From a virus, in the IMG/VR virus record IMGVR_UViG_3300029858_000001, positions 1 through 27,122 of that record: a stretch of DNA of 27,122 bases. One strand, written 5' to 3'. Below, in pieces: positions 4,304-19,541 of the stretch; the stretch's first letter is position 1, and every line of letters begins with the position of its first letter. The notes beneath the pieces were generated by a model. That model had not been told where the DNA came from, made no database searches, and saw only the letters and a program-made list of their open reading frames with translations. Both the position numbers and the translations under genes were made by a program.

Positions 4304-4891
4304 ATGCGAAAATTCTTAAATGTCATTCTTGTAATCACTATGGTTGCTTTAATGATGATGCCAGTAAGTGCTTTTAATATAATAAGTTATAGTGCTGATG
4401 GCGGAAGCAGGTCAGAAATCGAATACGGTCTTACAGAATATTGTAATTGCGGAATCGACCATACTAATAAACCCTTTGAATGGTGGACTGATATTACATC
4501 TACTGATAGTCCACAATGGGATTTAATTCATAACTATTTAACTATTCAAGAGAATGGCACATTAGCTACTGATGATGGCTATACCGCTTGTGCTCTTGGA
4601 AGATATTTCGGTAAAATTGGCTCAAAATGGATTTTTATTTGTGAAGACGGTTCAGAGATTAAGGTAGTTAAAGCTGATGAAAAGCAAGACCGCCATACAA
4701 AAAACTGGGATTTAATTCACGGTATTATTTGCGATGAATTAATTGAGCTTGTTGTAGATAGTAAGATTAGTCAAACTTGCCCAACTGGTAATTTCAAAGA
4801 CCTTGAAGGTTTTGAAGGTAATATAATTGGGTGGAAAGAAGTTCTTAATAATGAATTACCTGATTTATTAAAAGGAACAATTTATAAATAA
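4304..4891 (+). CDS. secreted or exported protein with an N-terminal signal peptide
   Basis: The N-terminus MRKFLNVILVITMVALMMMPVSAF is a typical signal peptide. The RBS is GAAGGAG. Confidence 0.6.
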   Translation: MRKFLNVILVITMVALMMMPVSAFNIISYSADGGSRSEIEYGLTEYCNCGIDHTNKPFEWWTDITSTDSPQWDLIHNYLTIQENGTLATDDGYTACALGRYFGKIGSKWIFICEDGSEIKVVKADEKQDRHTKNWDLIHGIICDELIELVVDSKISQTCPTGNFKDLEGFEGNIIGWKEVLNNELPDLLKGTIYK

Positions 4892-4917
4892 AATAATATT
4901 AAACGAGGTAATATAAA

Positions 4918-5418
4918 ATGAGCGTAGTTGCCGCGAAGGTATATGACAATAATATTCAAATGTCTGCGGATAGTATTTTAACTAATGGATGGGAAAAAGA
5001 CCCCAATACTAACTTTACTAAAATTATTTCTTTAAATGATATGATTGTTGGTAGTGTTGGTAATGCGGATGAATGCAGTCTTATGTGGCTATATATGGAA
5101 AATCATCAACCGCTTAATGCCACAGAAAGAGAAATTCTTAATTATTTTACTGAATTTGGTAAATGGAAAGGCGAGATTTCTAGTACTCGTGAGATTAGGA
5201 ATAGTTATTTAATGGCTTTTGGAGGTCATCTTTTTCAGATTTGTGGATATTTGGTTAGAGAAATTAAAGATTATTATGCCATTGGGGCTGGCGCTCCTTA
5301 TGCTTTGACCGCACTTCATCTTGGACATGATTCAGAAGAAGCTGTTAAAGTTTCTTGTGCTATGTGTTGTTTCGTTTGTGAACCTATTGTGACATATAGT
5401 CAAAAAAGAGGCGATTAA
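4918..5418 (+). CDS. HslV / 20S-proteasome beta-subunit-like Ntn-hydrolase
   Basis: Segments VGSVGNADECSL and AIGAGAPYALTAL resemble HslV AGFAGGTADAFTL and AIGSGGPYAQAAARAL. A Ser/Thr follows the Met. Confidence 0.55.
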   Translation: MSVVAAKVYDNNIQMSADSILTNGWEKDPNTNFTKIISLNDMIVGSVGNADECSLMWLYMENHQPLNATEREILNYFTEFGKWKGEISSTREIRNSYLMAFGGHLFQICGYLVREIKDYYAIGAGAPYALTALHLGHDSEEAVKVSCAMCCFVCEPIVTYSQKRGD

Positions 5419-5426
5419 ATATAGAT

Positions 5427-5470
5427 AAAAAGGGATAAAGATTTGATTCTTTATCCCTTTTTGATTTTTA
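5427..5470 (+). terminator. rho-independent terminator
   Basis: Stem AAAAGGGATAAAGA / TCTTTATCCCTTTTT followed by a T-tract. Confidence 0.7.
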
Positions 5471-5521
5471 TAATAAAATATTATAAAATATTTATAGAAA
5501 AAATAAAGGGAGTAAATAATC

Positions 5522-7165
5522 ATGACACCTTATGAAGCATTGACTGCACAAGATAAGGAATATATTACTGAATATATTGAAACATGGGGTGGCATTAATT
5601 CCCCAATTAAGCTTAAAGCACCTCTTAATTATATTCTTGGAGAATGGAATAAGAGTAAGCAAACTTTGTTTAATATCTTTGGCGAAAAGTTAATGCTGGA
5701 GAAGGAAATTCAAGTTGAAGATGGAGATAACAAAAAAATAAGAGAAGTTAGTGAGTATCTCTATAGCTTTAACCCTGGTATTAATTTTATTAAGAATCTT
5801 CGTAAGTTATTTGAGCTTAACGATACTTATTTTGAAAATACTTATGCAACAAAACATGCAATATATAATTTAATTCAAGCTTATCAACTTTTTACTAATA
5901 GAGTTGCTAAAGGATTTACTTATCATAATAAAGATGGTAAAATAGTTAAAGTTCCAGAAGGAGCTAAGGTAATGAAAGTTCTTCAGAAAATGGCTAAAGA
6001 ATTTGATTTGCCTGATTTTGAAATTTTTCGTAATCATATTTCGCGTATCACTGAAGTACGCAAATCTAAAATTAAATTTACTCTATCTATTCATCCTCTG
6101 GATTATATGACTATGAGTGATAATGTGAATGGGTGGGAAAGTTGTATGAACTGGACTCAAGGACCAGGTAGTTATCGTTCTGGTACTATTGAGATGATGA
6201 ATAGTCCATTAGTTGTTGTAGCTTATATTACTACTAAACCTTATTATCCAACAAATACTTCTATTGAATGGACTTCCAAAAGCTGGAGAGAATTGATTAT
6301 TGTTCATCCGAATACTATTTGTTCTGTAAAATCTTATCCTTATTACAATATTGCCTTTGATAAAGCTCTTGTTAATTGGCTTGCTAATCTGGTTGAAGAA
6401 AAAACTGAATGGCGTTATAACAGAAAACAGCCACAAGAGAGTTTGGAAAGTTGTTCTTATATTGAAGCTTGGCAAGATAAAGAAGATGAAGATAATCATT
6501 TCCTGTTGGATTTTGAAACAAATGAAATGTATAATGATTTTGGTAACACAGAAAATTATGGGATTTTTTCAATTAATCCACCAGACAATAAATATCGTAC
6601 ATTCGCAATTAATTATTCTGGTTTGATGACTTGTATGTGCTGTGGCGAGGATGGTTATTGGTCTGATGATACTGAAGCAGTAGTTTGTGAAGACTGTGAT
6701 CCACCCACTTATTGTTATTGCTGTGGCGAACGAGTTAATGCAAATGATGCAATTGAAGTAGATGGTGAATGGGTTTGCGAAGATTGTTATAATGATTTGC
6801 ATAGATGCTTATGCTGTGAGGATGCTCATTTTGATGAAGATTTCACTACTGTATTTGTTGGACATATTGATAATCAAACTATTAATATTGATTATGATGA
6901 GCATTATATTTGTAATGAATGTCTTGCCAATAAAGAATATTTAAAGTATCTCAGAGATACTAATATTAGGGCTGAAACAATTCGATTGGATGGCGGTCCT
7001 TATTATGGTATAGTGGCTCTCTTAATTGAAGAAGATGATTTAAATGTAGAGGCTAAAAAGATAATTTCTAATGATCCTTATTCTACTATAATTACTGATT
7101 ATACTTATGCTATTCGTCGTTATCCTGAGCGTTTTTATAGTTACAATAGGTCAATTGCGATTTAA
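5522..7165 (+). CDS. large protein: N-terminal 'HPLDY...W-SC' domain plus C-terminal multi-CxxC zinc-ribbon array (paralog of 9761-11083)
   Basis: SIHPLDYMTMSDNVNGWESCMNW resembles SVHPLDYLSLSENTHNWRSCHAL in 9761. Repeated CxxC pairs occur in the last 180 aa. Confidence 0.7.
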   Translation: MTPYEALTAQDKEYITEYIETWGGINSPIKLKAPLNYILGEWNKSKQTLFNIFGEKLMLEKEIQVEDGDNKKIREVSEYLYSFNPGINFIKNLRKLFELNDTYFENTYATKHAIYNLIQAYQLFTNRVAKGFTYHNKDGKIVKVPEGAKVMKVLQKMAKEFDLPDFEIFRNHISRITEVRKSKIKFTLSIHPLDYMTMSDNVNGWESCMNWTQGPGSYRSGTIEMMNSPLVVVAYITTKPYYPTNTSIEWTSKSWRELIIVHPNTICSVKSYPYYNIAFDKALVNWLANLVEEKTEWRYNRKQPQESLESCSYIEAWQDKEDEDNHFLLDFETNEMYNDFGNTENYGIFSINPPDNKYRTFAINYSGLMTCMCCGEDGYWSDDTEAVVCEDCDPPTYCYCCGERVNANDAIEVDGEWVCEDCYNDLHRCLCCEDAHFDEDFTTVFVGHIDNQTINIDYDEHYICNECLANKEYLKYLRDTNIRAETIRLDGGPYYGIVALLIEEDDLNVEAKKIISNDPYSTIITDYTYAIRRYPERFYSYNRSIAI

Positions 7166-7236
7166 TTGAAATTTTTAAAATAAAATAATATAATATATAC
7201 ATAAAATAAAGAAAAAATAAAAGGAGTTATTAAATT

Positions 7237-7632
7237 ATGGAAAAGAAATTTACGAAGCGTGAGCTGTATGATGCTCTGATTGGCAAGCTGTGCGGTGAAG
7301 AGGTTGAGGTTGATGCACAGACTCTGGTTGATTTTTGTCAGGCAGAGATTGACCGTATCGACCAGCGTAATGCCAAGGATCGCGAGAAGCGTGAAGCCAA
7401 GAAGGCTGAGCCTGATGTTGCGCGCGAGAAGGTATTTGCGGCACTTGACGAGCAATTCCGTACTGCTAATGTAATTCATGATTCTATTGGTGATGAAGAT
7501 ATTACTCTGGGTAAGGTTCGTCATCGTCTTGCAGGTCTTGTTCGTGATGGTCTGGTGAAGAAGCAGGAGATGAAGATTCCTGGTGGTGAAGGTGAGAAAG
7601 CACGTCACGCTATGTGCTACGCAAAGGTTTAA
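7237..7632 (+). CDS. hypothetical protein in a GC-rich (about 48%) compositionally foreign island
   Basis: Codon usage and GC differ sharply from the flanks (GAGCTG, GCGCGCGAG). The RBS is AAAAGGAG. A strong terminator follows. Confidence 0.6.
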   Translation: MEKKFTKRELYDALIGKLCGEEVEVDAQTLVDFCQAEIDRIDQRNAKDREKREAKKAEPDVAREKVFAALDEQFRTANVIHDSIGDEDITLGKVRHRLAGLVRDGLVKKQEMKIPGGEGEKARHAMCYAKV

Positions 7633-7639
7633 TACATGA

Positions 7640-7668
7640 AGGGTCGGGAAACCGGCCCTTTTGTTTTG
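7640..7668 (+). terminator. rho-independent terminator (GGGTCGG-GAAA-CCGGCCC plus T-tract)
   Basis: GC-rich hairpin with a GAAA tetraloop, followed by TTTTGTTTT. Confidence 0.7.
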
Positions 7669-7799
7669 CCATTTTAGGGTGCTGCTCCAGCCAAGGTCAG
7701 GCGTCTATACCGAACGTCCAAATTAAAAAGCGGTTTAAGAATTTTTTTGACTAAATGTTAATAATATGATAAAATAATATAAAAAAGGAGTAGATAAAA

Positions 7800-8627
7800 A
7801 TGAAAGTTTGTTTAAGACATAACCAAGAAGAACAATATCTCCAAAAGGCAGAATAGGTTGAGGTTAAATGGGCATATATTGACCAACTTCTTGATTTAGT
7901 AGAAAAATATCCTGATAAAGATTTTATCATAGATGCTCCAAAAGGCAAGCCAATGGATTGGAAAAGTATAGCCACTTGTAAGGCCGGCCTGCATTAGGGC
8001 CATACCTTCTATATTCGGCTGCATGATCTAAATCCTTTGCTTACATTACGCTGGATGGAGAAATATGATCTTAAATTTTTTTATAGTGAACCGGCAAAAA
8101 CCTATTATGAGCTGTATAATTTAAAAAAATTAGGTGTATCATATGCTTATATTGATGCTCCTATTTTCTTTGATTTAAATGAAGTAAAAAAAATAGATAT
8201 TCCATTAAGACTTGTACCAAATCGCGCATATATTCAAGGGCATATTCCACAAATGAGTGGCTTACATGGCACTTGGGTTCGTCCAGAAAAACTTGATATT
8301 TATGAACCATATTTTGATGTTTGTGAATTTGAAAATGATGGACCTACACAAGAACGAGCTTTCTACCGCATTTATTTTGAAGATAAGTCTTGGCCAAATG
8401 ACATGAATTCATTAATTTTTGGACTTAATACTAATATTGATGATAGATTAGTATATGAAGGTCTTGATGAAATGCGTCTTAATTGTAAACAAGTATGTGA
8501 AACGCCTAAGCCCTATTGCCAAATGTGTGATAAAGTATTGTACTTTGAACGTGCAGGACGCCAATGGGCTAAGGAGTATATTGCCGAACATGAGGGAGAA
8601 GACCAAGAACAGATAAGCCCTAATTGA
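7800..8627 (+). CDS. hypothetical protein (275 aa) with two in-frame TAG sense codons (7854, 7995)
   Basis: ATG 7800 has the RBS AAAAGGAG. Its frame is continuous with track ORF 8037-8627. The only interruptions are TAG. It ends at TGA. Confidence 0.6.
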
Positions 8628-8681
8628 TTATTTAATAAAATTATTATATAATATTTATATAATAATAGAAGGGAATAAGAA

Positions 8682-9680
8682 ATGGGTAAAAAAGTTTTAG
8701 TTCCTGAATTTACTGAAAATTGTAGGGGGCTTTTGGAAGGACTATTCAAGATTAGTGAAGTAGGTCTTTTGAAAGCTCTCGGTGATTTTGTATCTAATAA
8801 ATATTCTAATGTAGAAATTACAGAAGATTATGTATATGCTGAAGGCAATATTCCTGTTATGCTTATTGCACATGTAGATACTGTATTTAGACAACCAATT
8901 CGTCAATTTACTTATAATGAGAAAAGAGCTGTTTATAAAGGCAAGGAAGGTCTTGGAGCAGACGATAGAGCAGGTGTTTTTGCGATTATTCAGATTTTGC
9001 GTAAAAAGTATAGACCTTATGTTCTTTTTACAACAGATGAAGAAATGGGTGGCTACGGGGCACATATATTTGTTGAAGCACATCCAACAGCTCCAAATAT
9101 TAAGTATATGATTGAACTTGATAGAGCTGGTGAAAGAGATTGCGTCTTCTATGAGTGTGAGAATTTTACATTCATGGATTATGTTGAAAGTTTTGGTTTT
9201 AAGCAAGCGATTGGGTCATTTACAGATATTAGTATTATTATGCCTGAATGGGAAGTCGCTGGAGTAAATTTATCAGTTGGTTATCATCATGAACATACTC
9301 AGAATGAAGATTTACATATTAGAACATTGTATAATACAATTAGTAAAGTATGTAAAATGCTTGATGATATTGAAAATGCAGATAAATATAAGTTTATCCC
9401 CAGCAAGGAATATCTCCAATGGATTACATTGACTAATAAATATCATATGCCTTATGATTTTGATGATGATAAACTTCTTAATTGTAGTTTTTGTAATCAG
9501 TTGTATTATGAGTGGGAAGATTTTCCTCTTGATATTGATGGAGTAAAAGTTCATGTGTGCCCTGAATGTTTAGCACTTGATCCTAATATTCATCAATGTG
9601 AAAAGTGTTATAATTTATTTTATTCAAATAATATGAAGGAAAGAGTATGTGATAAATGTCGAGTCCCTGTTGTAATTTAA
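8682..9680 (+). CDS. M42/M20-like metallopeptidase-fold protein with a C-terminal CxxC zinc-ribbon array
   Basis: Motifs HVDTV, GADDRAG and TTDEEMGG match the HxD / GxDD(R/K)xG / EE motifs of M42/M20 peptidases. The C-terminus has CSFC, CPEC, CEKC and CDKC. Confidence 0.55.
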   Translation: MGKKVLVPEFTENCRGLLEGLFKISEVGLLKALGDFVSNKYSNVEITEDYVYAEGNIPVMLIAHVDTVFRQPIRQFTYNEKRAVYKGKEGLGADDRAGVFAIIQILRKKYRPYVLFTTDEEMGGYGAHIFVEAHPTAPNIKYMIELDRAGERDCVFYECENFTFMDYVESFGFKQAIGSFTDISIIMPEWEVAGVNLSVGYHHEHTQNEDLHIRTLYNTISKVCKMLDDIENADKYKFIPSKEYLQWITLTNKYHMPYDFDDDKLLNCSFCNQLYYEWEDFPLDIDGVKVHVCPECLALDPNIHQCEKCYNLFYSNNMKERVCDKCRVPVVI

Positions 9681-9760
9681 ATGAAATTAAAGAACAAGTA
9701 AAGAAGGTTATTGCCTATTCATAGGGGCTGGATATTAACCTTTTAAATATTGATAAATTA

Positions 9761-11083
9761 ATGAATGATTGGGAAGAGAATAAATGCAAATTTTATAGTA
9801 GGCTTCCTGGTAATAAATTAATTTATCAAAGCCATACGCCTATTACAATGTCTATTTCAGAAGATGATAAAAAAGCTGAATTAGATTGTTTTATTGACAA
9901 TATTCGTTGGCATTATGGTTTATTTGAATTAAAAGATTTTGTTGAAAATAATAGAAAAGATTTTTATAATAATATTTTAAGCGAAGATTATTCAATGAAT
10001 AATGGGACTGTCATTCCAAAAGGAATGAAAATAATTAAAGCATTTAAATATTTTGTAGAAGATAAGGAAATTCTTACTGAAATACAAGATAAAGCTAGTA
10101 TGCTTATTCAAAATACAAAAATTAGTGGATATTTTTGTATGTCAGTTCATCCATTGGATTATCTTAGTTTAAGTGAAAATACACATAATTGGCGGTCATG
10201 CCATGCTCTTGATGGAGAGTATCGTGCTGGTAATTTATCTTATATGGCAGATAATTGTACAATTATATGTTATATTAAGAGTGAACATGACGCGGTTTTA
10301 CCTAGATTCCCAGAGGATATACCATGGGCAGATAAGAAATGGCGTATGCTTCTTCATGTATCTGATGATAATACTATGGTTATTTCAGGTCGGCATTATC
10401 CTTATGAAAGTAAAGGATTACAAGATTTCGCTCTTGAATTATATGAAACATTTTTCGGGCTAGGATACCGTTTTACTGATTGGTGTCATGAAAAATATAA
10501 TACATTTACAATAAATGATAAAATTTTTTCTAATGAGAGTCGTTTATTACCTACTGGATACGTAATGACCCCAGATATTAAGGTTATTGTTGATCCGAAA
10601 AATCCTTTGCACTATAATGATCCTCTCCATTCTACTGTGTATGACTATTGGTTTAGTATTGCTTATAGTGAACCTTATTGGCATGAAGAAGGTATTCCAC
10701 AAGATAAATTAATTCTTCCAAGAACTCGTACTACTACTAAAGTTAACATAGGACATGGGGTAAAATGCTGTATTTGCGGCAAAAATGATTGTGTTTTAAC
10801 AGATACAATGCTTTGTATTGATTGTGAGCTTGAATATGGTACAGAAGAAACAGAAGATTTTACTTTCTGTAGAGAGTGTGGTAGACGTATTTATATTCCT
10901 GAAGCAATATCATTAGATGATGATGATGGTTATGTATGCCGTAGCTGCGGAGATAATTATTAGATATGTGATAATTGTAATATGTATTATGATAAAAAAG
11001 ATTTAATTTATGATGAAGAAAACAATGCTTATTATTGTGAAGCTTGTTTTGATGAAATTTTATTTGATAGGGAGAATGAATAA
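9761..11083 (+). CDS. paralog of 5522-7165 (HPLDY domain plus zinc-ribbon array), read through TAG at 10961
   Basis: After TAG the frame continues in clearly coding, CxxC-containing sequence to TAA 11081. This overlaps the next start (TAATG). Confidence 0.65.
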
Positions 11084-11391
11084 TGGCAAAAGGTAGTATT
11101 GCTAAAGATGCTGTCGTAGAAAAAATTGCAGAAGCATTTGGTGAAGATTTCCTTGGATCTTATGATAAAAAGTATTATGTGCGAGCTAAAGAAAATGGAC
11201 AATATATTCAGATTGCAATTAGTTTAACTTGTCCGAAGACTCCTGTGGAAAATTTTGGTTCTATGGATTTTGGTAATAATGAACTTAATTTTGAAGATGG
11301 AGCAACAATTCAGCCTGCGAAGAAGGCTACAGAAATTAGTCCAGAGGAAGAAGAAAATTTAAGAGCTTTAATTGAGAAATTAGGATTATAA
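11083..11391 (+). CDS. small acidic hypothetical protein
   Basis: 102-aa ORF. Confidence 0.5.
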   Translation: MAKGSIAKDAVVEKIAEAFGEDFLGSYDKKYYVRAKENGQYIQIAISLTCPKTPVENFGSMDFGNNELNFEDGATIQPAKKATEISPEEEENLRALIEKLGL

Positions 11392-11393
11392 TT

Positions 11394-12005
11394 ATGATTT
11401 TAAGAATAATTTATAATGAAAATGAATCTTATGATTATGATTTAGGAGAATACCATACAGATAAATTTAAACTTTTGACAAGTGTTTATCCAGCTTGTGA
11501 AATTAATATATTATATTTCCATGATATTAATGATACAGAAAATTCTAAATTTGATAAAATTGCAAAAGAAATTCAATCAAAACCTTTTTTATTAATTAAA
11601 GAAGTTCAAATTTTAAATAAAAATACTGTTGTTTTTAAACAAAATAGAATGATAAAAAATATTGTTTATAGAGATATTTTTTATTCTGCTGGTCATAATT
11701 TAATTAAAGAAGAAGCTTTAACATTTAAATTCCAAGAAAATTGTAAAGCTATCATTGATAGAGAAAAAGAACAAATTTTTTGTGATAAAGAAAATTGTAT
11801 GTATTTTAAACAAGGACATTGTTTTAATTATAATACAGACCTTTATCAAAGTGGAGAAGAATTTGTTCCTTGTTATCCTTGTTTTCTTGAATGTGATACT
11901 GGATTTAAATTTTCTGAAATTTATTCATTTTATACAAAGTTACAAAATAAGGCAGAAGATGAGGGACATTTACCTTATCAACCTTATACAATAAGAGATA
12001 ATTGA
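11394..12005 (+). CDS. hypothetical protein (203 aa), Cys-containing
   Basis: ORF immediately after the previous stop. Confidence 0.5.
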   Translation: MILRIIYNENESYDYDLGEYHTDKFKLLTSVYPACEINILYFHDINDTENSKFDKIAKEIQSKPFLLIKEVQILNKNTVVFKQNRMIKNIVYRDIFYSAGHNLIKEEALTFKFQENCKAIIDREKEQIFCDKENCMYFKQGHCFNYNTDLYQSGEEFVPCYPCFLECDTGFKFSEIYSFYTKLQNKAEDEGHLPYQPYTIRDN

Positions 12006-12060
12006 AAAAAATAAAAAAATAATATATAATATATATATAAAATAAAGAAAAAAATAAATA

Positions 12061-12194
12061 AAGACTTTAACAGCAAAAAATGGACAGTAAATCCGTCGCA
12101 AATGCTACGTAGGTTCGAATCCTACCCTCCCCACCATTATATGGCGGAGGTAGGGAAGTGGTTAAACCCAACGGAACCAAACCAAATAAGTCTT
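12061..12194 (+). tRNA. circularly permuted type-II tRNA-like unit. The 3' half (12092-12136: TCCGT anticodon-stem strand, long variable arm, T-arm GTAGG-TTCGAAT-CCTAC, acceptor CCTCCCC-A-CCA) precedes the 5' half (12144-12175: acceptor GCGGAGG, TA, D-arm GGG-AAGTGGTTAAA-CCC, anticodon-stem ACGGA). The unit is flanked by the inverted repeat AAGACTT / AAGTCTT.
   Basis: Acceptor complementarity is 6/7. The anticodon-stem halves are perfectly complementary 5-mers (ACGGA/TCCGT). The T-arm is canonical. A 7-bp long-range terminal helix is present. No anticodon could be assigned. Confidence 0.4.
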
Positions 12195-12259
12195 GTTTGA
12201 ATAAAATAATTATTTGATTTTTAATAAAAAATATTATATAATATTTATATAAAAAAAGA

Positions 12260-12377
12260 AAGGCTTTTACAGCAATTTAAACTTTTTTCCGTGGTCGAAT
12301 AACTGGATAATTCATCAGAGTTAATTCTGAAAATAAGGATTCGAATTCCTTCCTTGGAGCAAAGCGTAAAAAGTCTT
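12260..12377 (+). tRNA. tRNA-like gene (core 12288-12359) with a 6-nt anticodon loop GTTAAT, flanked by the inverted repeat AAGGCTTTT / AAAAGTCTT. It shares the leader ACAGCAA with the 12061 unit.
   Basis: D-arm GAAT-AACTGGATA-ATTC, T-arm AAGGA-TTCGAAT-TCCTT, and an acceptor with one mismatch and one wobble. No CCA. The anticodon is not assignable. Confidence 0.35.
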
Positions 12378-12453
12378 GGGTAAATTTCTTAATTTGAAAA
12401 AATTAAAAAAATATAATATAATATATAAGTAATCAATAAGAAATCAAATAAAT

Positions 12454-12602
12454 GCTCTCGTAGCTCAATTGGTCAGAGCCGGCGACTTATCCAAGATTAG
12501 TTTAAATGGTAAAATAGTCTATGCGCAAGAAAGATGTGAGTTCAAGCCTAACATCTTGGGCCAAATCGCCAGATGTGGGTTCAAATCCCGACGGGAGCAC
12601 CA
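12454..12602 (+). tRNA. tRNA (Ile-like, anticodon loop CTTAT|AA, UAU) interrupted by a 73-nt tRNA-like insertion (12491-12563) after anticodon position 36
   Basis: Outer acceptor GCTCTCG / CGGGAGC-A-CCA. D-arm GCTC-AATTGGTCA-GAGC. Anticodon-stem GGCGA / TCGCC is split by the insert. The insert has termini CCAAGAT / ATCTTGG, a T-arm GTGAG-TTCAAGC-CTAAC, and its own G-CCA. Confidence 0.5.
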
Positions 12603-12871: not shown

Positions 12872-13795
12872 ATGCCTAAACTTATTGATATTCCGATAGA
12901 AACTAAATTTAATAGATGGACTGTTCTTAAAAGAGATACTACTAAGAAACGAGGATACTGGTTTTGTTAGTGCGATTGTGGTAATCCTGAAATTAGAAGT
13001 ATAAATATTACTACATTAAAAAGTGGACGTTCAAAATCTTGTGGTAAATGTGGATAGTATGATGAAATTGGTAAGACTTATGGACGTTTAAAAGTTCTTG
13101 AAGTTGATTTAGATTATAAAGAGTAGTATAAGACTAAAGTTTCAGGTTATTATTATAAATGTTAGTGCTCTTGTGAAAATAAAACAATTATTACCGTAAG
13201 TGGCATTAATTTAAGAAATGGACATACAAAATCTTGCGGATGCTTAATTAAAGAAGGGTGTAATAAAAAAGATCTAACAGGTCAAGTTTTTGGGTTTTTA
13301 AAAGTTTTATATCCGACTGAATAGAGGGTATCTTCTTATATCATTTGGCATTGTCGTTGTTTAAATTGTAATAATGAATGTGATGTTTCATCCAGAAATT
13401 TAATTGAAGGAAGAACTAGCTCTTGTGGATGTTTGCGTTCAGTTGGAGAAGCAAATATAAAAAAAATATTGCAAAATAATTAGATAGATTTTTCTTAGGA
13501 AAAAAATTTTTCAGATTTAATTAATCCAGATACTACATATTTATTACGTTATGATTTTTATTTACCTCAATTTAATAGGCTTATAGAATTTGATGGAGAG
13601 TAGCATTTTAAATATAAAAAAAATAATTCTACTTGGAACAATGAAGAAAATTATTTAAAAACAGTGCATAATGATAAAATAAAAAATGATTATGCTAAAT
13701 AGCACAATATTCCATTAGTTCGTATTCCTTACTGGGAACGTGATAATATTACTCTTGATATGTTATTAGGAGATTAGTATTTAATTAACAAATAA
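12872..13795 (+). CDS. free-standing homing-endonuclease-like protein: three tandem Cys4 zinc-finger repeats (W-C-x-C-x-C-G-N ... S-C-G-C) plus a C-terminal Vsr/PD-(D/E)XK-like nuclease domain (YRYDFYLPQFNRLIEFDGEQHF). Contains 10 in-frame TAG sense codons.
   Basis: Hand translation gives a single frame from ATG 12872 to TAA 13793. The only interruptions are TAG. The repeats WFC(TAG)CDCGNPE, YKC(TAG)CSCENK and WHCRCLNCNNE are each followed by SCG(K)C. Confidence 0.65.
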
Positions 13796-13900
13796 TTTAT
13801 TGAATTTTTTGTCCATCATCCTGAAGTTTAATTGAAAAATTAAAAAAAATATTATAAAATATATATACAAAATAAATGAGAAATAAATTCTCATTTGTAT

Positions 13901-13977
13901 GGGACAGTAGCTTACGAGGTCGGAGCATTGGTCTGAAAAACCAAAGGATGGAGGTTCGATACCTCTCTGTCCCACCA
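13901..13977 (+). tRNA. tRNA-Phe (GAA)
   Basis: Acceptor GGGACAG / CTGTCCC. Anticodon loop CTGAAAA. T-arm GGAGG-TTCGATA-CCTCT. The discriminator is A and CCA is encoded. Confidence 0.85.
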
Positions 13978-13978
13978 A

Positions 13979-14058
13979 TTGGTCTTATACATGGGGTTTT
14001 CGATTTGAACTAGGCAGATTAGTCACCTGCCGTTGGCAATAGACCAATTAAAAATAAA
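13979..14058. ncRNA. short structured element / degenerate tRNA-like hairpin enclosed by TTGGTCT / AGACCAA
   Basis: 7-bp terminal helix. It has an internal GGCAG-ATTAGTCAC-CTGCC stem-loop that reads GTGACTAAT on the minus strand. No canonical cloverleaf forms on either strand. Confidence 0.25.
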
Positions 14059-14195
14059 CTGAGGCAAAGGGAAATCGGGTAGCTATGATGAATTTCATAG
14101 TAAAATCCTCTCATAATCAAGCTAATTGGGAGAGGGGTAGCACGGGAACGGGGAGAAGCGTGCTATAAAAGGTGAAATACTTCTTTCCACCATAT

Positions 14196-14271
14196 GCCGG
14201 TGTAGCCGAATGGCATAGGCGAATGATTTAGGATCATTAATCTGAAGGTTCGAGTCCTTTCACCGGTACCA
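14196..14271 (+). tRNA. tRNA with anticodon UAG (decodes CUN Leu codons) but a type-I (short variable arm) body
   Basis: Acceptor GCCGGTG / CACCGGT-A-CCA. Anticodon-stem AATGA / TCATT. Loop TTTAGGA. T-arm GAAGG-TTCGAGT-CCTTT. Confidence 0.65.
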
Positions 14272-14355
14272 ACAGTGAAGTAGTAGCTATACTCACTATA
14301 ATCAAGGCTCGGTGGTTGGTGGCTCCATCGTTATGTAAATAAGTCATATATATAT

Positions 14356-14426
14356 TACTTCTTGGTGTAATGGAAGCATGCTGCCTGAAAGAGGCGGAGG
14401 TATTGGTTCAATTCCAATAGAAGGAT
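14356..14426 (+). tRNA. tRNA-like element lacking a canonical anticodon loop (loop TGAAAGA or GAAAG pentaloop)
   Basis: Acceptor TACTTCT / AGAAGGA with one mismatch. T-arm ATTGG-TTCAATT-CCAAT is perfect. Anticodon-stem CTGCC / GGCGG. No CCA. Confidence 0.35.
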
Positions 14427-14795
14427 TAATTAAAGCTGGGAAATAATAGTCGCCCATAACTAATTATTTAATATAGGACTATTATTAAAGGTTATTTAAG
14501 TTAAAGAAATGCGGTTGAAGTTATTACTAACTTGATTATAAAATAACATGACCGCAAGACGAGTGTTTGAAGCTTGTCTATAAACAAATTCTTCATATGT
14601 TGTCTTTTTATACTTACTCTTTGGTTGTTTCTTGACATATAAGTAAAAACGGAAAGGGAGTTAAAGGTTCAGCTAAAAAACCGGTTTGTTTTTTGATAAG
14701 GTTTTAAAAATTATTAGGTGACAAAATCTTATTTGAGTGACGCTGCTCAGGAGGGTCCGGAACCTCTGAAATGCGTATAATAAAGGAGATAAAAT

Positions 14796-14972
14796 ATGAA
14801 ATTTCAATTAAGGTATTTTCATTGTCCTATTTGTCATTTACAAATGACGGCTCCTAAAACCAAGAATTTCAAAAAATCTTCTTATAAAGGGAAAAAACAT
14901 CGAAAAATAATGTATTGCATTAATTGTAAAAAAGAACAAAATTTTATTTTAGATGAAATTTCTATTGTATAA
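14796..14972 (+). CDS. small zinc-ribbon protein (58 aa; CPIC...CINC)
   Basis: ATG with RBS AAAGGAG. It is not in the ORF track because it is under 60 aa. Hand-translated MKFQLRYFHCPICHLQM...CINCKKEQNFILDEISIV. Confidence 0.45.
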   Translation: MKFQLRYFHCPICHLQMTAPKTKNFKKSSYKGKKHRKIMYCINCKKEQNFILDEISIV

Positions 14973-15011
14973 ATGATGGTGTGGCCTAGCGGTAAGGCAC
15001 CTGCCTTTGAT

Positions 15012-15745
15012 TTAGTAGCATAAGTAATGCAATTTCGAACTGGGTCAAAGAAGGTTAAGAGAATTAATTTAGGAATTAAATAACAGTGAAAGGAGCTGTT
15101 ATTTATGGCTAAAACTAATTCAGAAAATGTATGTAATTTTGTTAGAAATAGAAAAGCTAATTTAATTTCTTTATTTCATAGTAAATGTTGTATTTGTGGT
15201 TTCGATAAATTTCAAGAAGCTTTAGAATTTCATCATATAAATCCTAAAGAAAAAGAAATTTCTCTATCAGCTAATACAATGGTGTCATTAGAACGTCAAA
15301 TCAATGAGGCTAAAAAATGTATTTTAGTTTGTTCTAATTGCCATAAGGGAATACATGCTGGATATTATCAAATTCCTTCTAATTATTAGGATTTATTTGA
15401 TAATGAATAGGCAGAATATTTATTATAGATGAATAAAGAAATTAAAGAAGGTAAAAAACATTATTGCAAACAATGTGGTAAATTATTAAATTCTAATACA
15501 ACTTATTGTTTAGATTGTAGTCATATTATTTAGCGTAAAACAGAAAGACCAGATAGAGAAACTTTAAAGTAGTTAATTCGTAATTAGTCTTTCGTAGCAA
15601 TAGGTAAATAGTATGGAGTAAGTGATAATGCTATTCGCAAATGGTGTGTTTCTATGAATTTACCTACTAAAAAAACAGAAATTAACCTTTATAATGACGT
15701 CTAGTGGGAATAGATATAAGTTCAAATCTTGTTTAAATCACCATA
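15012..15745 (+). mobile_element. intervening sequence (intron-like) inside the tRNA-Gln anticodon loop, carrying a homing endonuclease gene
   Basis: It lies between the exon halves above. It contains ORF 15105-15719. A hairpin AACAG-TGAAAGGAGC-CTGTT presents the SD. Confidence 0.6.
15105..15719 (+). CDS. HNH homing endonuclease (N-terminal HNH: CCICGF...HHINPKE...CSNCH; C-terminal HTH: LIRN(Q)SFVAIGK(Q)YGVSDNAIRKWC) with 7 in-frame TAG sense codons
   Basis: The standard-code ORF is 15105-15389. With TAG read as sense the frame continues to TAA 15717. The frame was verified codon by codon. Confidence 0.7.
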
Positions 15746-15784
15746 AGCAGGGTACCGAGGGTTCAAATCCCTCCACCATCACCA

Positions 15785-16315
15785 GGTCAAGTTTGAGAAA
15801 TTTCATAAAGCATCGCTGACGTTAAATGGCACTTATATGAAAACGCGTAAGTAATATAAGATAGCAAAATTCTCGTAGTTCATCCTATTAGAGAATCTTA
15901 AAGAGTAATGGCAAGATCATATCGCGGGAGACCGTGCGTATGAGATACCAATAAAGGTAGCACATCTTGTGTTGAGCAAGATAAAAGATGGAAAGGATAC
16001 CTGCCATGCTTGGACGGTAAAAGAAGGCGTTGAATGTAATCGAAAAACATTCCGTTGGTTCTTAGGGGAGCGACGTAACAGTGAAACCCGAGGTTTGAGT
16101 CACCTTGTCCAAACGCTATGTATAGTCAAAGTCTAGGCAACAAGGTTTTAATTAGAGTTAATATTGTTTTAATTAAACTCATACTTGTGGAAATCAAGCA
16201 GGTCCACCTTACTGGGCCTACTGTAAAAGCCAGTTTGATATAGCCTCCATACCCAATGAGGATTTTTATAAAAGTCTATTTAATTTTTCGGGCGGTTTAA
16301 TTAGATAGATTAAAT
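15785..16315. ncRNA. about 530-nt non-coding, comparatively GC-richer, hairpin-rich region between tRNA-Gln and tRNA-Val. Candidate structured RNA of unknown class.
   Basis: No ORF in any frame even allowing TAG. TAA/TGA are dense in all frames. Many local helices are present (GTGGA...TCCAC, CCTC...GAGG). It contains a TATAGTC motif reminiscent of group I P7 but no matching GACTA partner. Confidence 0.3.
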
Positions 16316-16392
16316 GCCGAGATAGTGCAACTGGTTAACACGTCGCTTTTACACAGCGAAGAGTCTGAGTTCAAGTCTCAGTCTCGGCACCA
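16316..16392 (+). tRNA. tRNA-Val (UAC)
   Basis: Acceptor GCCGAGA / TCTCGGC-A-CCA. Anticodon-stem TCGCT / AGCGA. Loop TTTACAC. T-arm CTGAG-TTCAAGT-CTCAG. Confidence 0.85.
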
Positions 16393-16457
16393 ACAAATTT
16401 GAAAATTTAAAAAAAATATTATATAATATATATATAATAATAAAGGAGATATTTGAA

Positions 16458-16622
16458 ATGGCAACTACTAAGAAACCTGCAATTAAAATGGATAATACAG
16501 AGTTGAACGAGTATCTTCTGTTTCGCCGTCGTAGATCTATTGTTCCTGCTAAGAAAGGCAAGGGCATGGAATATGATAGAGCAAAGGAAAAAGAAAAGTC
16601 AAGAGATTTGGCTTCTGATTAA
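16458..16622 (+). CDS. small basic protein (54 aa)
   Basis: RBS AAAGGAG. Hand-translated MATTKKPAIKMDNTELNEYLLFRRRRSIVPAKKGKGMEYDRAKEKEKSRDLASD. It is embedded in the tRNA operon. Confidence 0.45.
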   Translation: MATTKKPAIKMDNTELNEYLLFRRRRSIVPAKKGKGMEYDRAKEKEKSRDLASD

Positions 16623-16726
16623 CTTAGGCGGCAAGAACATTTCTGTTCCTTGTAAATATAGCACATACTAATAACTTAGGAGTTGTGCCCTACAGCCAGT
16701 GAGTAGTTTTCAGGCTGGCATTATAT

Positions 16727-16801
16727 GGCCCCATCGACAAGTGGTCAAGTCCCAGGGTTTTCATCCCTGTATCGTCGGTTCGAATCCGGCTGGGGTCACC
16801 A
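16727..16801 (+). tRNA. tRNA-Glu (UUC)
   Basis: Acceptor GGCCCCA / TGGGGTC-A-CCA. Anticodon-stem CAGGG / CCCTG. Loop TTTTCAT. T-arm GTCGG-TTCGAAT-CCGGC. Confidence 0.85.
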
Positions 16802-16899
16802 TTAAGTGTGATATATTCCAAACACGTAGGGTGGTAAGCACACGGGTTTTCTAGAAGCCTTCCCTATGAATATGGGAGACTAGCCTAGTGGTTCAGGCA

Positions 16900-17373
16900 G
16901 CGGACTGTTTCTTCTGACTTACAATGTTGTAGAATTATGTTAAATTCAAAACAAATTGGTAATATCACAGAAATGGAATCAATGCTTGCTTTTTTAAAGT
17001 TAGGTTATAATGTTCTTACTCCTTATGGAGATTGTGAGCGTTATGACTTCGTAGCTGATGTGAATGGAAATTTTTATAAAATTCAATGTAAAACTTCTCA
17101 TGCTTTTGGTGAGAATGAAGGTATTGAATTTAGTTGCAGAAGTTCTCATCGAGCCGAAGGAAAATGTATTAACGAACGATATACAGCAGATGATGTAGAT
17201 TTTTTTGCTACAACATTTAATGGGAAATGTTATTTAGTTCCTTTTAATGAATGTGGTGGCAGTAAAAAATTAAGATTTGTTAATCCAAAAAATGGACAAA
17301 TTCAACGAGTATCATTTGCTGAAAATTATGAATTAGAGAAGGTGTTAATGACATTGTAACTGATGTAAGAAGC
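16900..17373 (+). mobile_element. intervening sequence in the tRNA-Asn anticodon loop carrying a PD-(D/E)XK homing endonuclease gene
   Basis: Bounded by the exon halves above. ORF 16937-17359 occupies nearly all of it. Confidence 0.55.
16937..17359 (+). CDS. PD-(D/E)XK homing endonuclease, I-Ssp6803I-like (known from a cyanobacterial tRNA-fMet intron)
   Basis: Motif ERYDFVADVNGNFYKIQCK fits D...(D/E)xK. The size is 140 aa. It lies inside a tRNA anticodon loop. It has no TAG codons. Confidence 0.55.
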   Translation: MLNSKQIGNITEMESMLAFLKLGYNVLTPYGDCERYDFVADVNGNFYKIQCKTSHAFGENEGIEFSCRSSHRAEGKCINERYTADDVDFFATTFNGKCYLVPFNECGGSKKLRFVNPKNGQIQRVSFAENYELEKVLMTL

Positions 17374-17519
17374 AATCCGCCAAGCAAGGTTCAATTCCTT
17401 GGTTTCCCGCCACCGCACTCGCGGAAAACATACAACTCAACTGGTGCATAGAACTGGATGGAGCGTTCTATTAGTCTGATGCCTGCATTAGATTAAGTTT
17501 TATAACCATCATACTTGGG

Positions 17520-17590
17520 GACATAGTTTATGGTAGGAAAACGTTGAATTTAATTCAAAGTCGAGGGTTCGAATCCCACTCCCGCAACCA
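17520..17590 (+). tRNA. tRNA-like 3' element (GAGGG-TTCGAAT-CCCAC ... TCCCGCA-A-CCA) with an unresolved 5' partner. Possibly another split or degenerate tRNA.
   Basis: Canonical T-loop and a CCA end. No complementary acceptor 5' strand was found within 150 nt. Confidence 0.25.
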
Positions 17591-17713
17591 TATGAAAAGC
17601 CCATACAGCAACTTTTAATAGGATAAATAAGAAATTCTGCAAAAATTTTTTAGAGTTGGTTCAAATCCAGCAAATGATTTTAGGGCTTTGTTAAAATTAT
17701 TAAGGAGAAAATA

Positions 17714-17899
17714 ATGAAGTTTAATCCAGGAGATAAGGTCTGGTGTAAGAGGTACGGTAAGGGTAAGTGCCGCAAGGCTGATAATAAGGATAATTTTATG
17801 ACTTATCTTTTCAGATTTTATGATGGCACTTTAATTTGGATGCCAAAACATCAGGCTGAACATTTTGTAAAAGTTCGTTCCACCGAGGCCACGGTGTGA
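17714..17899 (+). CDS. small hypothetical protein (61 aa)
   Basis: RBS AAGGAG. ORF in the track. Confidence 0.5.
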   Translation: MKFNPGDKVWCKRYGKGKCRKADNKDNFMTYLFRFYDGTLIWMPKHQAEHFVKVRSTEATV

Positions 17900-18059
17900 A
17901 TATAAAGTCCGGTTATAGGAAATCCTGTCATTAGGCGGCAGGCTACCGGTAATCCTTTCTTATATATTTAAATATGTAAGGAACAAAAACTATACAATAG
18001 ATAGAGTTTTTACGCCTTGGCGCAATGCTTGTTTTTTTACTATCTATTTTTTTATACTT

Positions 18060-18151
18060 GTTGGGTTGGCTGAGAGGTCGATAGCGGCTGCCTGCTAAGC
18101 AGTTGTCCCTGGAAACGGGGACCAAAGGTTCAAATCCTTTACCCAACGCCA
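18060..18151 (+). tRNA. tRNA-Ser (GCU), type II
   Basis: Acceptor GTTGGGT / ACCCAAC-G-CCA. Loop CTGCTAA. Long variable arm TGTCCCTGGAAACGGGGACC. T-arm AAAGG-TTCAAAT-CCTTT. Confidence 0.85.
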
Positions 18152-18157
18152 TTATAT

Positions 18158-18245
18158 GTAGGAGTGCCAGAGTGGTCGATTGGGTTAGTCTCCAAAACTA
18201 ATTGTAGCTACACATCCAGGGTTCGAATCCCTTGCTCCTATGCCA
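18158..18245 (+). tRNA. tRNA with anticodon CCA (Trp-decoding) but a type-II body (3-bp D-stem with 11-nt D-loop, 14-nt variable arm TTGTAGCTACACAT)
   Basis: Acceptor GTAGGAG / CTCCTAT-G-CCA. Anticodon-stem TTAGT / ACTAA is perfect. Loop CTCCAAA. Confidence 0.5.
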
Positions 18246-18515
18246 TATATTAAGACTCATTTTCAGCAAACTTTTGCCTGTAAAGGTTCTACATACTTAC
18301 TTATCAAATAATAGATGAAAAAGTATAATAAAGAAAATAAAGTATATTTTGAAAAGTTTTTTCTTTTTAGCTGGTTTAGTAAGCTAAATTCCGTGTTTTT
18401 ATTTTGGCTTTTCAATGAGTCTTGTTTTTTAAAATAATTGGTATCGCTAAGCTTCATGGTAATTGTGGCGTATTTAAATCATAGATAGTTAAGGGTCTAT
18501 AGCCAATTATAATAT

Positions 18516-18604
18516 GCGGAATTAACTTGCCCGGCGGTAAGCCTTGTCTTGAAAACAAGTGGTCCTGTGAAAGGGATGGGGATCGACACCTCAGTTCCGC
18601 GCCA
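18516..18604 (+). tRNA. tRNA-Ser (UGA), type II
   Basis: Acceptor GCGGAAT / GTTCCGC-G-CCA. Anticodon-stem CTTGT / ACAAG. Loop CTTGAAA. Long variable arm. T-arm TGGGG-ATCGACA-CCTCA. Confidence 0.75.
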
Positions 18605-18643
18605 CTCGTTTCAGATTCGTTCATTGCATTTCATCCTTTCTAA

Positions 18644-18680
18644 AAATAAATCCATCTTTAAAGATGGATTTATTTTTTTG
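18644..18680 (+). terminator. rho-independent terminator ending the tRNA array
   Basis: Perfect hairpin AAATCCATCTTTAAAGATGGATTT followed by TTTTTTT. Confidence 0.75.
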
Positions 18681-18783
18681 CTTTTCTTCAAAATTTATAG
18701 TATAATATAAATGGTTAAAAGAGATTAAATGTATTAAGAAATATTTTATTATTATTAGAAATATTTTAAGGAGGATTCTTAAT

Positions 18784-19155
18784 ATGGTTTATGAAATTAC
18801 TTGTACTGATCCTAATGGAGAGAAAAAAACTTTAATTGTTTAGGATACAGACAACATTAAAATAAGTATAGAATATCAAGAAAGTGGAAATCTTCTTACT
18901 TTCGCAAATGATTTTAATCAATAGGCTGAAAAAAGTTCTGATATGGATAATCTTTTTAATTTTCTATCAAAAAAAGATACAGATTTTAGTATCAGCGTTA
19001 ATGTAAATGAAAATAAATTTAGTTATGCTACTTTTAAGTCAATAACTAATATTAAATATACTATTAGTTTAAATCCAACAGAAAATAAAAGACCAGATAC
19101 TAAATTATTTACAGCTATGGTTCAAGCTGAATTTAAAAAAGGAGATGAAGTATAA
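18784..19155 (+). CDS. small protein (123 aa, 2 TAG sense codons), tandem paralog of the next gene
   Basis: RBS AAGGAGG. Frame is continuous with track ORF 18943-19155. Shared motif DFSISVNVNENKFSYATFKSITN. Confidence 0.55.
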
Positions 19156-19541
19156 TGTTGATTTATGATATATCTTTTATAGATAGCAATTCTGAAAAAC
19201 ATAGTATTCCATTCCCAATACCAAATACTAATATTGAAATTTCCTATGGTACAGATCAAAAACGTTATTTAACTTTAACTTATAAATATAATACTACAGA
19301 AGAAAGAGAAGAATACCTAAGCAAAATATAGCAATTTAATTTAAGTTCTAATTCTGATTTTACTATTTCTATTTTAGATGATGATAATTCAGTTTCTTCT
19401 TTTATTTTTACTACTTTTAAAAATTTAAGAGAAGAAGAAGTTCAAAATACTATAAATAAAGATTATATCTATCGAGCTATAGATGATAGTCCTAAATTTG
19501 AATTACATTTATTCTGTCAATTAGGTGAAAATAATGAGTAA
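19155..19541 (+). CDS. small protein (128 aa, 1 TAG), paralog of 18784-19155
   Basis: The start overlaps the previous stop (TAATG). Motif DFTISILDDDNSVSSFIFTTFKN. Confidence 0.5.

Follow-up and report, generated by a model that had tools for sequence, protein, structure and literature searches.

A permuted tRNA-Tyr in a phage tRNA array is probably a Y-RNA-like tRNA mimic of a widespread, covarying RNA family

The virus record IMGVR_UViG_3300029858_000001 of IMG/VR (positions 1 to 27,122; this whole stretch of 27,122 nt is called the window) carries at 12061-12194 a tRNA-Tyr in permuted order, bounded by a 7-bp terminal helix. An earlier note, made from the letters alone, had described this unit as a circularly permuted type-II-like tRNA. 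The question raised by the locus is whether the unit is a broken tRNA awaiting ligation or an RNA that looks like a tRNA and serves another end. We found that it belongs to a large phage RNA family, that its tRNA mimicry is of the Y RNA type, and that the usual neighbour of the family is a gene for a putatively Ro60-like protein; a protein-bound tRNA look-alike is therefore more likely than a broken tRNA. The unit, whose whole structured RNA spans 12060-12196 on the plus strand, is probably a non-coding, Y-RNA-like tRNA mimic of ~135 nt, on which a Ro60-like protein would dock at the terminal helix (P1) and a CAGCAA motif next to it.

All parts of the unit lie on the plus strand. A sigma-70-type promoter (TTGAAA, 17 nt, TATAAT; 11 of 12 consensus matches) was found at 12002-12030, about 30 nt 5' of P1. 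The 5' strand of P1, AAGACTT (12061-12067), pairs at all seven positions with the 3' strand AAGTCTT, which is followed by a conserved unpaired G (12188-12195 together). CAGCAA (12071-12076) is a conserved unpaired motif, presumably for protein contact or tertiary structure. An anticodon-arm-like hairpin, ATGGA-CAGTAAA-TCCGT (12080-12096), forms in the minimum free energy (MFE) fold; it has the tRNA-Tyr loop with A33 for U33 and ends in the anticodon-stem strand TCCGT (12092-12096). Then follow a long (type II) variable region of 12 nt, CGCAAATGCTAC (12097-12108), which aligns with the variable arm of a conventional phage tRNA-Tyr, a T-arm of 5 bp, GTAGG-TTCGAAT-CCTAC (12109-12125), and the acceptor 3' strand CCTCCCC with A73 and CCA (12126-12136). 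The acceptor stem is capped by a 7-nt loop, TTATATG (12137-12143); the spacer had been read earlier as TTATAT, which is present at 12137-12142 and is followed by one extra G at 12143. The acceptor 5' strand GCGGAGG (12144-12150) pairs with 12126-12132 at six of seven positions, the mismatch being C2·C71. The D-arm, GGG-AAGTGGTTAAA-CCC (12153-12169), has a 3-bp stem as in type II tRNAs. ACGGA (12171-12175) is a second copy of the anticodon-stem 5' strand, which thus occurs twice in the unit (ATGGA and ACGGA); it can pair with TCCGT at five of five positions, as in the AC stem of YrlA-type RNAs, and this pairing is set apart from P1 by unpaired stretches of 15 nt and 12 nt. All elements named in the earlier note were found where it had placed them, with the pairing it had given (6/7 in the acceptor, 5/5 in the anticodon stem and 7/7 in the terminal helix).

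In the native gene order, neither ARAGORN nor Rfam called a tRNA. When the halves were rejoined in silico, ARAGORN called tRNA-Tyr(GTA) with a complete cloverleaf, the 3' half of which lies 5' of the 5' half in the DNA. This call, together with compensatory changes in the clade described below, confirmed the circularly permuted type-II-like tRNA. The terminal helix had also been proposed to bring together the ends of a broken anticodon loop. That proposal was not supported: the loop is intact in the local hairpin at 12080-12096, and a bulge-helix-bulge (BHB) motif (3-nt bulge, 4-bp helix, 3-nt bulge) was absent from the leader/trailer junction in both the sequence and its MFE fold. Searches of Rfam 15 at gathering and permissive thresholds gave no family for the unit, only weak partial matches of tmRNA and plastid untranslated regions on the T-arm. 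Megablast of 8 kb against deposited phages returned zero matches, and scans of viral contigs by the upstream flanking protein and by the exact T-arm/acceptor sequence found nothing.

Close relatives were found among metagenomic contigs. The unit was 100% identical in ten related contigs (phages of ~185 kb); an eleventh had 98.9% identity. In an alignment of six clade members, A73-CCA was present in each. The window and L012 have GTAGG as the 5' strand of the T-stem, and L078, L136, L125 and L261 have GCAGG; CCTGC matches GCAGG in L078, L136 and L125, which is a double change, and the 3' strand in L261 is less clear. The acceptor stem, GCGGAGG/CCTCCCC in the window, is GGGGAGA/TCTCCCC in L261 (7/7 paired), with pair 7:66 altered on both sides and the 2:71 mismatch repaired. 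The AC pairing ACGGA/TCCGT of the window becomes ATGGA/TCCAT in L261, which is again compensatory. The anticodon-like loop has the canonical sequence CUGUAAA in L125 and L261, and A33 was present in four of the six members, the window included. This pattern of substitution indicates that the permuted unit is under selection and is neither an artefact nor a product of decay. The rejoined sequence was 74% identical to the conventional tRNA-Tyr of L261, and the CCCTCCCCACCA end was identical; these identities indicate that the clade's module was recruited from a phage (type II) tRNA-Tyr. L261 has both the conventional tRNA-Tyr gene and the permuted unit.

Beyond the clade, the unit proved to be one member of a much wider family. 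The family frame consists of AAGACnn, (A/T)CAGCAA, an inner module and nnGTCTT-G, and it recurs in divergent relatives with very different inner sequences. The unit has the family layout, in which CAGCAA lies 3-6 nt after the P1 5' strand and the T-arm, the capped acceptor-like stem, 2 nt and the D-arm follow in this order. A covariance model (R1), built without the unit's own clade, matched the window at 12060-12196 from end to end (model positions 1-119, 57.3 bits, E 8e-11). A search pattern composed of the 5' helix, CAGCAA and the T-loop was run on viral, metagenome and genome-assembly collections. It matched at least 119 IMG/VR contigs, mostly of 80-400 kb, and gave at least 120 matches in metagenomes and at least 120 in bacterial and archaeal genome assemblies, mostly of gut Clostridia. 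Cultured Enterococcus phages, such as EA1, EFGrKN and Porthos (units at PQ571287 109,109-109,542), carry the RNA as well, without annotation. Among 364 distinct raw 5' matches, 59% were closed by a perfect 7-nt complement 70-220 nt downstream, compared with 6% in a shuffled control, and 116 of 171 closed units could be parsed into a T-arm, a 7-8 bp stem with a short loop (often a tetraloop), 2 nt and a D-arm. Thus, the ends of the unit do pair in a terminal helix, as first noticed, and this helix is not special to the unit: it is the conserved P1 of the family, with 97.8-100% pairing family-wide and covariation at its variable positions.

Covariation was analysed in several ways. RNAalifold, run unguided on a MAFFT alignment, recovered P1, T, the acceptor-like stem (AS) and D, with double changes in 17 of 24 pairs. 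In the seed alignment of 34 sequences, 98.4% of cells were paired against 30-46% when the partners were slid, a percentage inflated by the filtering of the seed set for intact P1, AS and D stems; covariation was 0.761 against 0.06-0.15. The T-stem, the slide controls and the set found by the model are unaffected by this filter. In the model-found set (100 distinct copies), 95.3% of cells were paired against 35-44% in slid controls, covariation was 0.791 against 0.07-0.14, and 23 of 24 base pairs had double changes. CAGCAA was 96-100% conserved at each position in the 100 distinct copies, also among the 33 of them that did not match the text pattern, and the unpaired G 3' of P1 was 94% conserved. 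By these measures, the family has a conserved four-helix fold with a conserved unpaired motif. The comparison of the locus that had been recommended earlier yielded, besides the ten identical contigs and the eleventh at 98.9%, a covarying and widespread family.

In 39 of 133 family units, CCA was located exactly where a tRNA has it, with a sharp positional peak; some members of the family thus seem to need a free CCA end. In most members, a hairpin caps the acceptor stem and the anticodon loop is absent. The family therefore does not consist of split tRNAs for decoding, and the ligation or repair step that the earlier note had raised, next to use as a nicked two-piece tRNA, is not called for.

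The RNA is accompanied by a characteristic gene. In Enterococcus phage EA1, three tandem units are located 263 nt upstream of, and on the same strand as, the gene of a 510-aa "RNA-binding protein", which consists of the Pfam domains DUF2828, DUF7788 and vWA. We examined 261 sequences, mostly collected through the RNA pattern, for this linkage. A homologue was encoded in 83 of them, and the RNA copies were on the strand of the gene in 119 of 119 cases, at a median of 156 nt upstream. The linkage also held in the opposite direction: when loci were collected by the protein alone, 28 of 32 with at least 41% identity carried the RNA, and all 48 model hits were upstream and on the same strand. In genome assemblies, the gene was present in 51 of 120 loci among the matches listed, with a shared strand for 61 of 61 RNA copies and a median offset of 193 nt. 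Within the unit's own clade, the tRNA array of L125, which holds an 84%-identical unit, leads straight into a DUF2828 gene, and the neighbourhood of L261 contains the RNA (7225-7362), a DUF2828 gene (10001-11548) and homologues of the RlaP and the metallophosphoesterase encoded in the window (15.9-17.7 kb). Gene order thus shows genomic coupling of the RNA to the putatively Ro60-like gene in most lineages, with the gene directly downstream on the RNA's strand.

The DUF2828/DUF7788 family comprises at least 7,997 clusters, and its proteins have an invariant DxSGSM motif of the MIDAS type (an adhesion site that depends on metal ions). When an AlphaFold2 model of the protein was compared with the PDB by Foldseek, the ten best matches were all Ro60/Rsr over the full length. 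There is moderate evidence, from this predicted structure, that DUF2828-DUF7788-vWA is a divergent Ro60-like protein. A literature search found nothing tying DUF2828 to RNA, and no paper describing the RNA family was found; the RNA-repair survey of Burroughs and Aravind (2016), which may already tie DUF2828-type proteins to tRNA-like RNAs, was outside these searches.

The permuted arrangement had been held to be unknown from phages, and our literature search on permuted tRNAs in phages found nothing. The same order is, however, shared by the YrlA-type Y RNAs, which Chen et al. (2014, PMC4201824) detected beside the Ro60 gene of 254 bacteria and of 22 phages. Reported traits of YrlA also include binding by Rsr/Ro60 and modification by TruB and DusA. 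The structure of the YrlA tRNA-like domain has been solved (Wang et al., 2018, bioRxiv 10.1101/312249), and YrlA has been described as resembling a circularly permuted tRNA (PMC4201824; bioRxiv 10.1101/312249). The family resembles YrlA in having a terminal stem made of the two RNA ends with a conserved, largely single-stranded protein-binding motif, an interior mimic running from V loop through T-arm and loop-capped acceptor-like stem to D-arm, and a position upstream, on the same strand, of the gene of a vWA protein, which is a ring-forming RNA-binding protein for YrlA and putatively so for the family, often with RNA-repair genes. It differs from YrlA in that the linked protein is DUF2828-DUF7788-vWA instead of Pfam TROVE + vWA_Ro60, in that it occurs in multiple copies per genome scattered through tRNA arrays, and in having no Rfam match. 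The published Ro-binding motif is GNCGAAN0-1G (PMC4201824); GNCGAA is absent from 12037-12100 of the window, where the motif is (A/T)CAGCAA. No window protein matched TROVE, and no TROVE-domain Ro60 orthologue was encoded near the unit within the bounds used for YrlA (same strand, ~4 kb). Mycobacteriophage Bxz1 provides a direct comparison: its gp220 is a canonical TROVE + vWA_Ro60 protein with a canonical YrlA upstream, and R1 matched the T/AS/D core of this YrlA (positions 43-104, 22.7 bits, E 7e-4). Thus, the family has a distinct recognition module and a divergent, putatively Ro60-like partner, and its permuted topology is already known in phages.

Two described systems suggest how such an RNA may act. 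The YrlA of Mycobacterium smegmatis, with its acceptor stem of 7 bp, is cleaved by RNase P and has a CCA added (PMC4201824). The window unit shares the 7-bp acceptor-like stem and the short-loop cap, the feature held responsible for RNase P cleavage; it differs in encoding its CCA and in retaining an anticodon-like hairpin and a type II variable arm. By this analogy, two pieces are predicted, base-paired with each other: the 5' one would end in CCA and the 3' one would begin at G+1. The second system is that of Thermus phage phiLo, in which Yrl1 and Yrl2 have a CGAA motif and go with a canonical TROVE protein; the phage Ro60, Yrl and host PNPase are reported to assemble into a RYPER-like complex, with a suggested role in escape from host defences (PMC12135203). 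Like the RNAs of our family, these are phage Y-like RNAs upstream of a phage Ro60-type gene, with a 5'-3' stem beside a conserved bulge motif; unlike them, they have the CGAA motif and a TROVE protein, and the part of the source that was consulted mentions no tRNA-like module for phiLo.

On this basis we propose the following mechanism. An RNA of ~135 nt would be transcribed from its own sigma-70-type promoter. P1 and CAGCAA would form the docking site for the Ro60-like DUF2828-DUF7788-vWA protein, and the tRNA-like module would act as the effector, offering the shape of a tRNA to tRNA-binding enzymes, nucleases or repair factors. As in M. smegmatis YrlA, RNase P might cut between 12143 and 12144, 5' of G12144; 3' trimming could then free the CCA end, and the product would be a two-piece, tRNA-shaped RNA joined by the acceptor stem and P1. 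Cleavage by RNase P to a two-piece, CCA-ended RNA is plausible by analogy, because the 7-bp acceptor stem, A73-CCA and an intact anticodon-like hairpin have all been retained. Ligation is not required for a two-piece RNA. Placed beside RlaP, a phosphoesterase and a PNK-like kinase, the RNA most likely has a role in phage RNA repair, quality control or anti-defence.

Several points weigh against this proposal, in addition to the inflated pairing percentage of the seed alignment. The family has a short, AT-rich P1 (AAGAC/GTCTT-G) with CAGCAA, whereas YrlA has GNCGAAN0-1G in a long stem, and R1 did not match the protein-binding terminal module of Bxz1 YrlA. Two folds compete within the unit, the local hairpin ATGGA/TCCGT and the YrlA-type AC stem ACGGA/TCCGT, and both are compatible with the clade; family-wide, an analogue of the AC stem with at least four of five pairs was present in 53 of 113 units, against 17 of 113 shuffled controls. 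The fold match to Ro60 comes from a moderate model (pLDDT 70, TM about 0.33), and no sequence-level match between the DUF2828 protein and Ro60/TROVE was obtained in single-sequence and profile searches of the PDB or in NCBIfam. The DUF2828 gene was not found in the ~42 kb covered of the 187-kb genome of the window's own phage (the window plus L263 and L304 of the 187,325-bp contig ERZ28658370:XIEH16-1_SAMEA3449350_METAG-scaffold_77), and the nearest IMG/VR relative of this phage was not among the matches of the protein-based scan. The partner of the window unit may be encoded elsewhere in the 187-kb genome, may be encoded by the host, or may be absent.

These last observations are also the best ground for a different reading, in which P1 and CAGCAA are another kind of signal (a stem for array processing or stability, a site for some other factor, or a small ribozyme or mobile element) and the DUF2828 linkage reflects co-regulation. 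The window's phage has four units and no Ro-like gene in the 42 kb, many copies lie in tRNA arrays kilobases away from the gene (upper quartile >2.6 kb), CAGCAA is unlike the known Ro-binding motifs (PMC4201824; PMC12135203), and the inner modules are highly variable, being of the T/AS/D type, tRNA-like in normal order, a T-arm only, or missing. We nevertheless regard this reading as unlikely. RNA and gene are closely linked in three collections, reciprocally and without exception on the same strand, which is how Y RNA/Ro60 pairs are defined, and a constant terminal module with variable effector modules is a hallmark of Y RNAs. In addition, no ribozyme family was detected in the Rfam searches, and the compensated variation of the helix argues against a DNA inverted repeat recognised by a transposase.

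A more ambitious version of the two-piece model, which we consider quite doubtful, is that the clade's scaffold is a complete, selectable tRNA-Tyr, which RNase P and 3' trimming would turn into a two-piece molecule chargeable by tyrosyl-tRNA synthetase (TyrRS). If it were true, the unit would serve either as a functional split tRNA-Tyr on a Ro-like protein tether or as a decoy that can be charged and draws host defence nucleases directed at tRNA-Tyr, and the ~30% of the family that encode N73-CCA would form a class, hidden so far, of phage tRNA mimics that are protein-tethered and aminoacylatable.

It is very unlikely that the unit is a true permuted tRNA-Tyr gene, the product of which is circularised or ligated, or used as a nicked two-piece molecule, matured by RNase P and a 3' nuclease, charged, and active in decoding UAY. 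Permuted tRNA genes reportedly exist in Cyanidioschyzon merolae, some green algae and Thermofilum. In these algal and archaeal cases, a BHB motif is cut by the splicing endonuclease, and RtcB-type ligation leads through a circular intermediate to a contiguous decoding tRNA. The window unit is similar to them in having the 3' half first, a short intervening sequence and a leader-trailer terminal helix; it differs in its bacterial/phage setting, in the lack of a BHB, for which an archaeal-type BHB intron or permuted tRNA was rejected, and in a scaffold common to RNAs that cannot be tRNAs. The ARAGORN call of tRNA-Tyr(GTA) on the rejoined halves favours a decoding tRNA, as does the clade's retention of G1-C72, A73, CCA, the type II variable arm and a GUA anticodon-like loop, which is the canonical CUGUAAA in L125 and L261; moreover, no conventional tRNA-Tyr was seen in the arrays of the window lineage that were examined, and end-healing enzymes are encoded nearby. 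These points are outweighed by the rest of the family, which has capped acceptors and in most cases lacks an anticodon loop; a device for tRNA maturation is therefore not what the scaffold is. The A33 of four of the six clade members, the window included, stands in place of the near-universal U33 and argues against decoding, and L261 has a conventional tRNA-Tyr as well. A BHB is absent, and loops of 15 nt and 12 nt lie between the AC stem and P1. The mature molecule would keep P1 and CAGCAA, which would form a bulky additional arm, either at position 26/27 or in the region of the anticodon. A ligase was among the checks suggested at the outset, and the ~42 kb contained no recognisable one.

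Hardly credible is a functionless pseudogene left by decay of a tandem tRNA-Tyr duplication, with a fortuitous flanking helix, which the earlier note had named as the outcome that would undo it: tandem duplication with loss of the outer halves is indeed the simplest origin, as supported by the duplicated ATGGA/ACGGA, and the C·C acceptor mismatch and the A33 in the loop would suit decay, but throughout the clade the T-stem, the acceptor stem and the AC pairing are maintained by compensatory changes, a strong promoter belongs to the unit itself, P1 and CAGCAA are common to hundreds of independent copies, and the covariance model gave E 8e-11, so that covariation and family membership effectively exclude it.

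Other candidates were rejected. For a group I permuted intron-exon arrangement, the flanks are too short and no Rfam intron matched. No motif supported a retron, a ribozyme or a miniature inverted-repeat transposable element, and the helix covaries. A two-piece tmRNA is similar in that the T-arm, the acceptor 3' strand and CCA precede the acceptor 5' strand and, on the predicted processing of the unit, in giving two base-paired pieces; it differs in that the window unit has neither a tag reading frame nor pseudoknots. Rfam tmRNA_permuted (RF04321) scored 13.9 bits against a threshold of 47, with the T-arm/acceptor part alone aligning, and ARAGORN called no tmRNA.

Three further units of the Y-RNA-like family were identified in the window, all on the plus strand. 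The sibling at 12259-12379 has the same P1 and ACAGCAA (R1 24.6 bits, E 0.002), and inside it the D arm, the anticodon-like arm and the T arm of a tRNA-like module follow the normal order, without CCA. It resembles Yrn1 of Deinococcus radiodurans (PMC4201824) in its normal-order arms (D then T) and in a terminal stem at the acceptor position; Yrn1 differs in having a metazoan-like Ro-binding helix where this sibling has P1 and CAGCAA. Promoters similar to that of the permuted unit are located 5' of this sibling (12214-12242) and of the next tRNA (12394-12422). The sibling at 17595-17691 has a P1 of AAGCCC/GGGCTT, ACAGCAA and a T-arm only (R1 29 bits, E 2e-4). A probable sibling at 18252-18424, with a 9-bp P1 (AAGACTCAT/ATGAGTCTT-G), TCAGCAA and a long AT-rich interior, was not matched by R1, and its assignment is tentative. 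In phage EA1 (L260 8740-9180), a second conserved element was observed 5' of each of the three tandem units. It reads GGTTTTG(A/G)…ATAGTTCC…GGAAC ATAAAGAA, contains a hairpin, and may be a promoter, an operator or a processing site.

The window DNA is AT-rich, and its tRNA array extends from 12.0 to 18.6 kb. Upstream of the array, on the plus strand, are genes for an RlaP-family nucleotidyltransferase (2418-3233; PF10127, 29.5 bits), which belongs to an RNA-repair context, and for a calcineurin-like metallophosphoesterase (3431-4210; PF00149, E 1.6e-12), which belongs to an RNA end-healing context. A polynucleotide-kinase-like AAA_33 protein is encoded at L263:1670-2206. The three genes lie within ~9 kb and resemble an RNA end-healing set. 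Three paralogues flank the RNA-repair genes and the RNA array: 10-579 (the C-terminus of a 572-aa protein), 5522-7165 and 9656-11083. They share the motif S-x-HPLDY-x3-S-x-N-x3-W-x-SC and C-terminal CxxC zinc-ribbon repeats; they have no Pfam match, and one of them matches phrog_18912 (unknown function). In-frame TAG is frequent in genes from about 12.8 kb (12872-27062) and does not occur in 1-12005. Its frequency downstream of the tRNA array and absence upstream suggest that TAG is reassigned in late genes. No tRNA with a CTA anticodon was called in the window; tRNA(cta) is present in L013, L016, L019 and L261.

Other tRNA genes of the array are also unusual. At 12454-12602, a tRNA lies within a tRNA: a 73-nt insert (12491-12563) occupies the outer anticodon loop and is itself tRNA-like, with a 7-bp CCAAGAT/ATCTTGG stem, D-like and T-like arms and a terminal G + CCA. 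Exact deletion of the insert gave a 7-nt loop, CTTAT^AA, and an ARAGORN call of tRNA-Ile(TAT). If RNase P and a 3' nuclease excise this element, the outer halves would need ligation. The halves of a tRNA-Gln(TTG), at 14975-15784, are ~736 nt apart. Nearly all of the insert is an open reading frame (ORF) for an HNH endonuclease (15105-15719, with nine in-frame TAG); only ~120 nt lie outside coding sequence, not enough to hold the core of a group I ribozyme, and no Rfam intron matched. ARAGORN miscalled the 3' part of this gene as tRNA-Leu(caa). A second split tRNA, at 16874-17412, contains an ORF for a PD-(D/E)XK homing endonuclease (16937-17359), with ~100 nt of the insert outside the ORF; its joined halves gave a tRNA call, the identity of which varied with the chosen splice site. 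Many GIY-YIG, HNH and PD-(D/E)XK genes were found in the tRNA arrays of related contigs. ARAGORN called a tRNA-Phe with the unusual anticodon AAA at 14356-14426 (Rfam score 38 bits), and this gene is present in many related contigs as well. After several tRNAs there are GC-richer, apparently structured non-coding stretches (13980-14195, 14270-14355, 15785-16310, 16800-16870 and 17400-17515), which might be ribozymes or other non-coding RNAs; no Rfam match was found for them. In recoded gut phages, HDV-like theta ribozymes are known downstream of tRNAs (PMC10879173).

Most knowledge of Y RNAs and Ro60 comes from animals and from a small number of bacteria, and what they do in bacteria and phages is poorly understood. 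Our results suggest another RNA-protein pairing of the Y RNA/Ro60 design, and a much larger one, in which the cognate RNAs have a recognition module of their own and occur in several copies per genome in phage tRNA arrays, beside RNA-repair genes. The linkage gives DUF2828/DUF7788 a testable function. For genome annotation, the family explains "half-tRNA" signals that standard tRNA finders overlook. Phages repeatedly turn real tRNAs, here tRNA-Tyr, into permuted mimics, which is relevant to the tRNA-centred arms race of phages with the defence nucleases of bacteria. With the family RNA lying unannotated in cultured Enterococcus phages, experiments are possible straight away.

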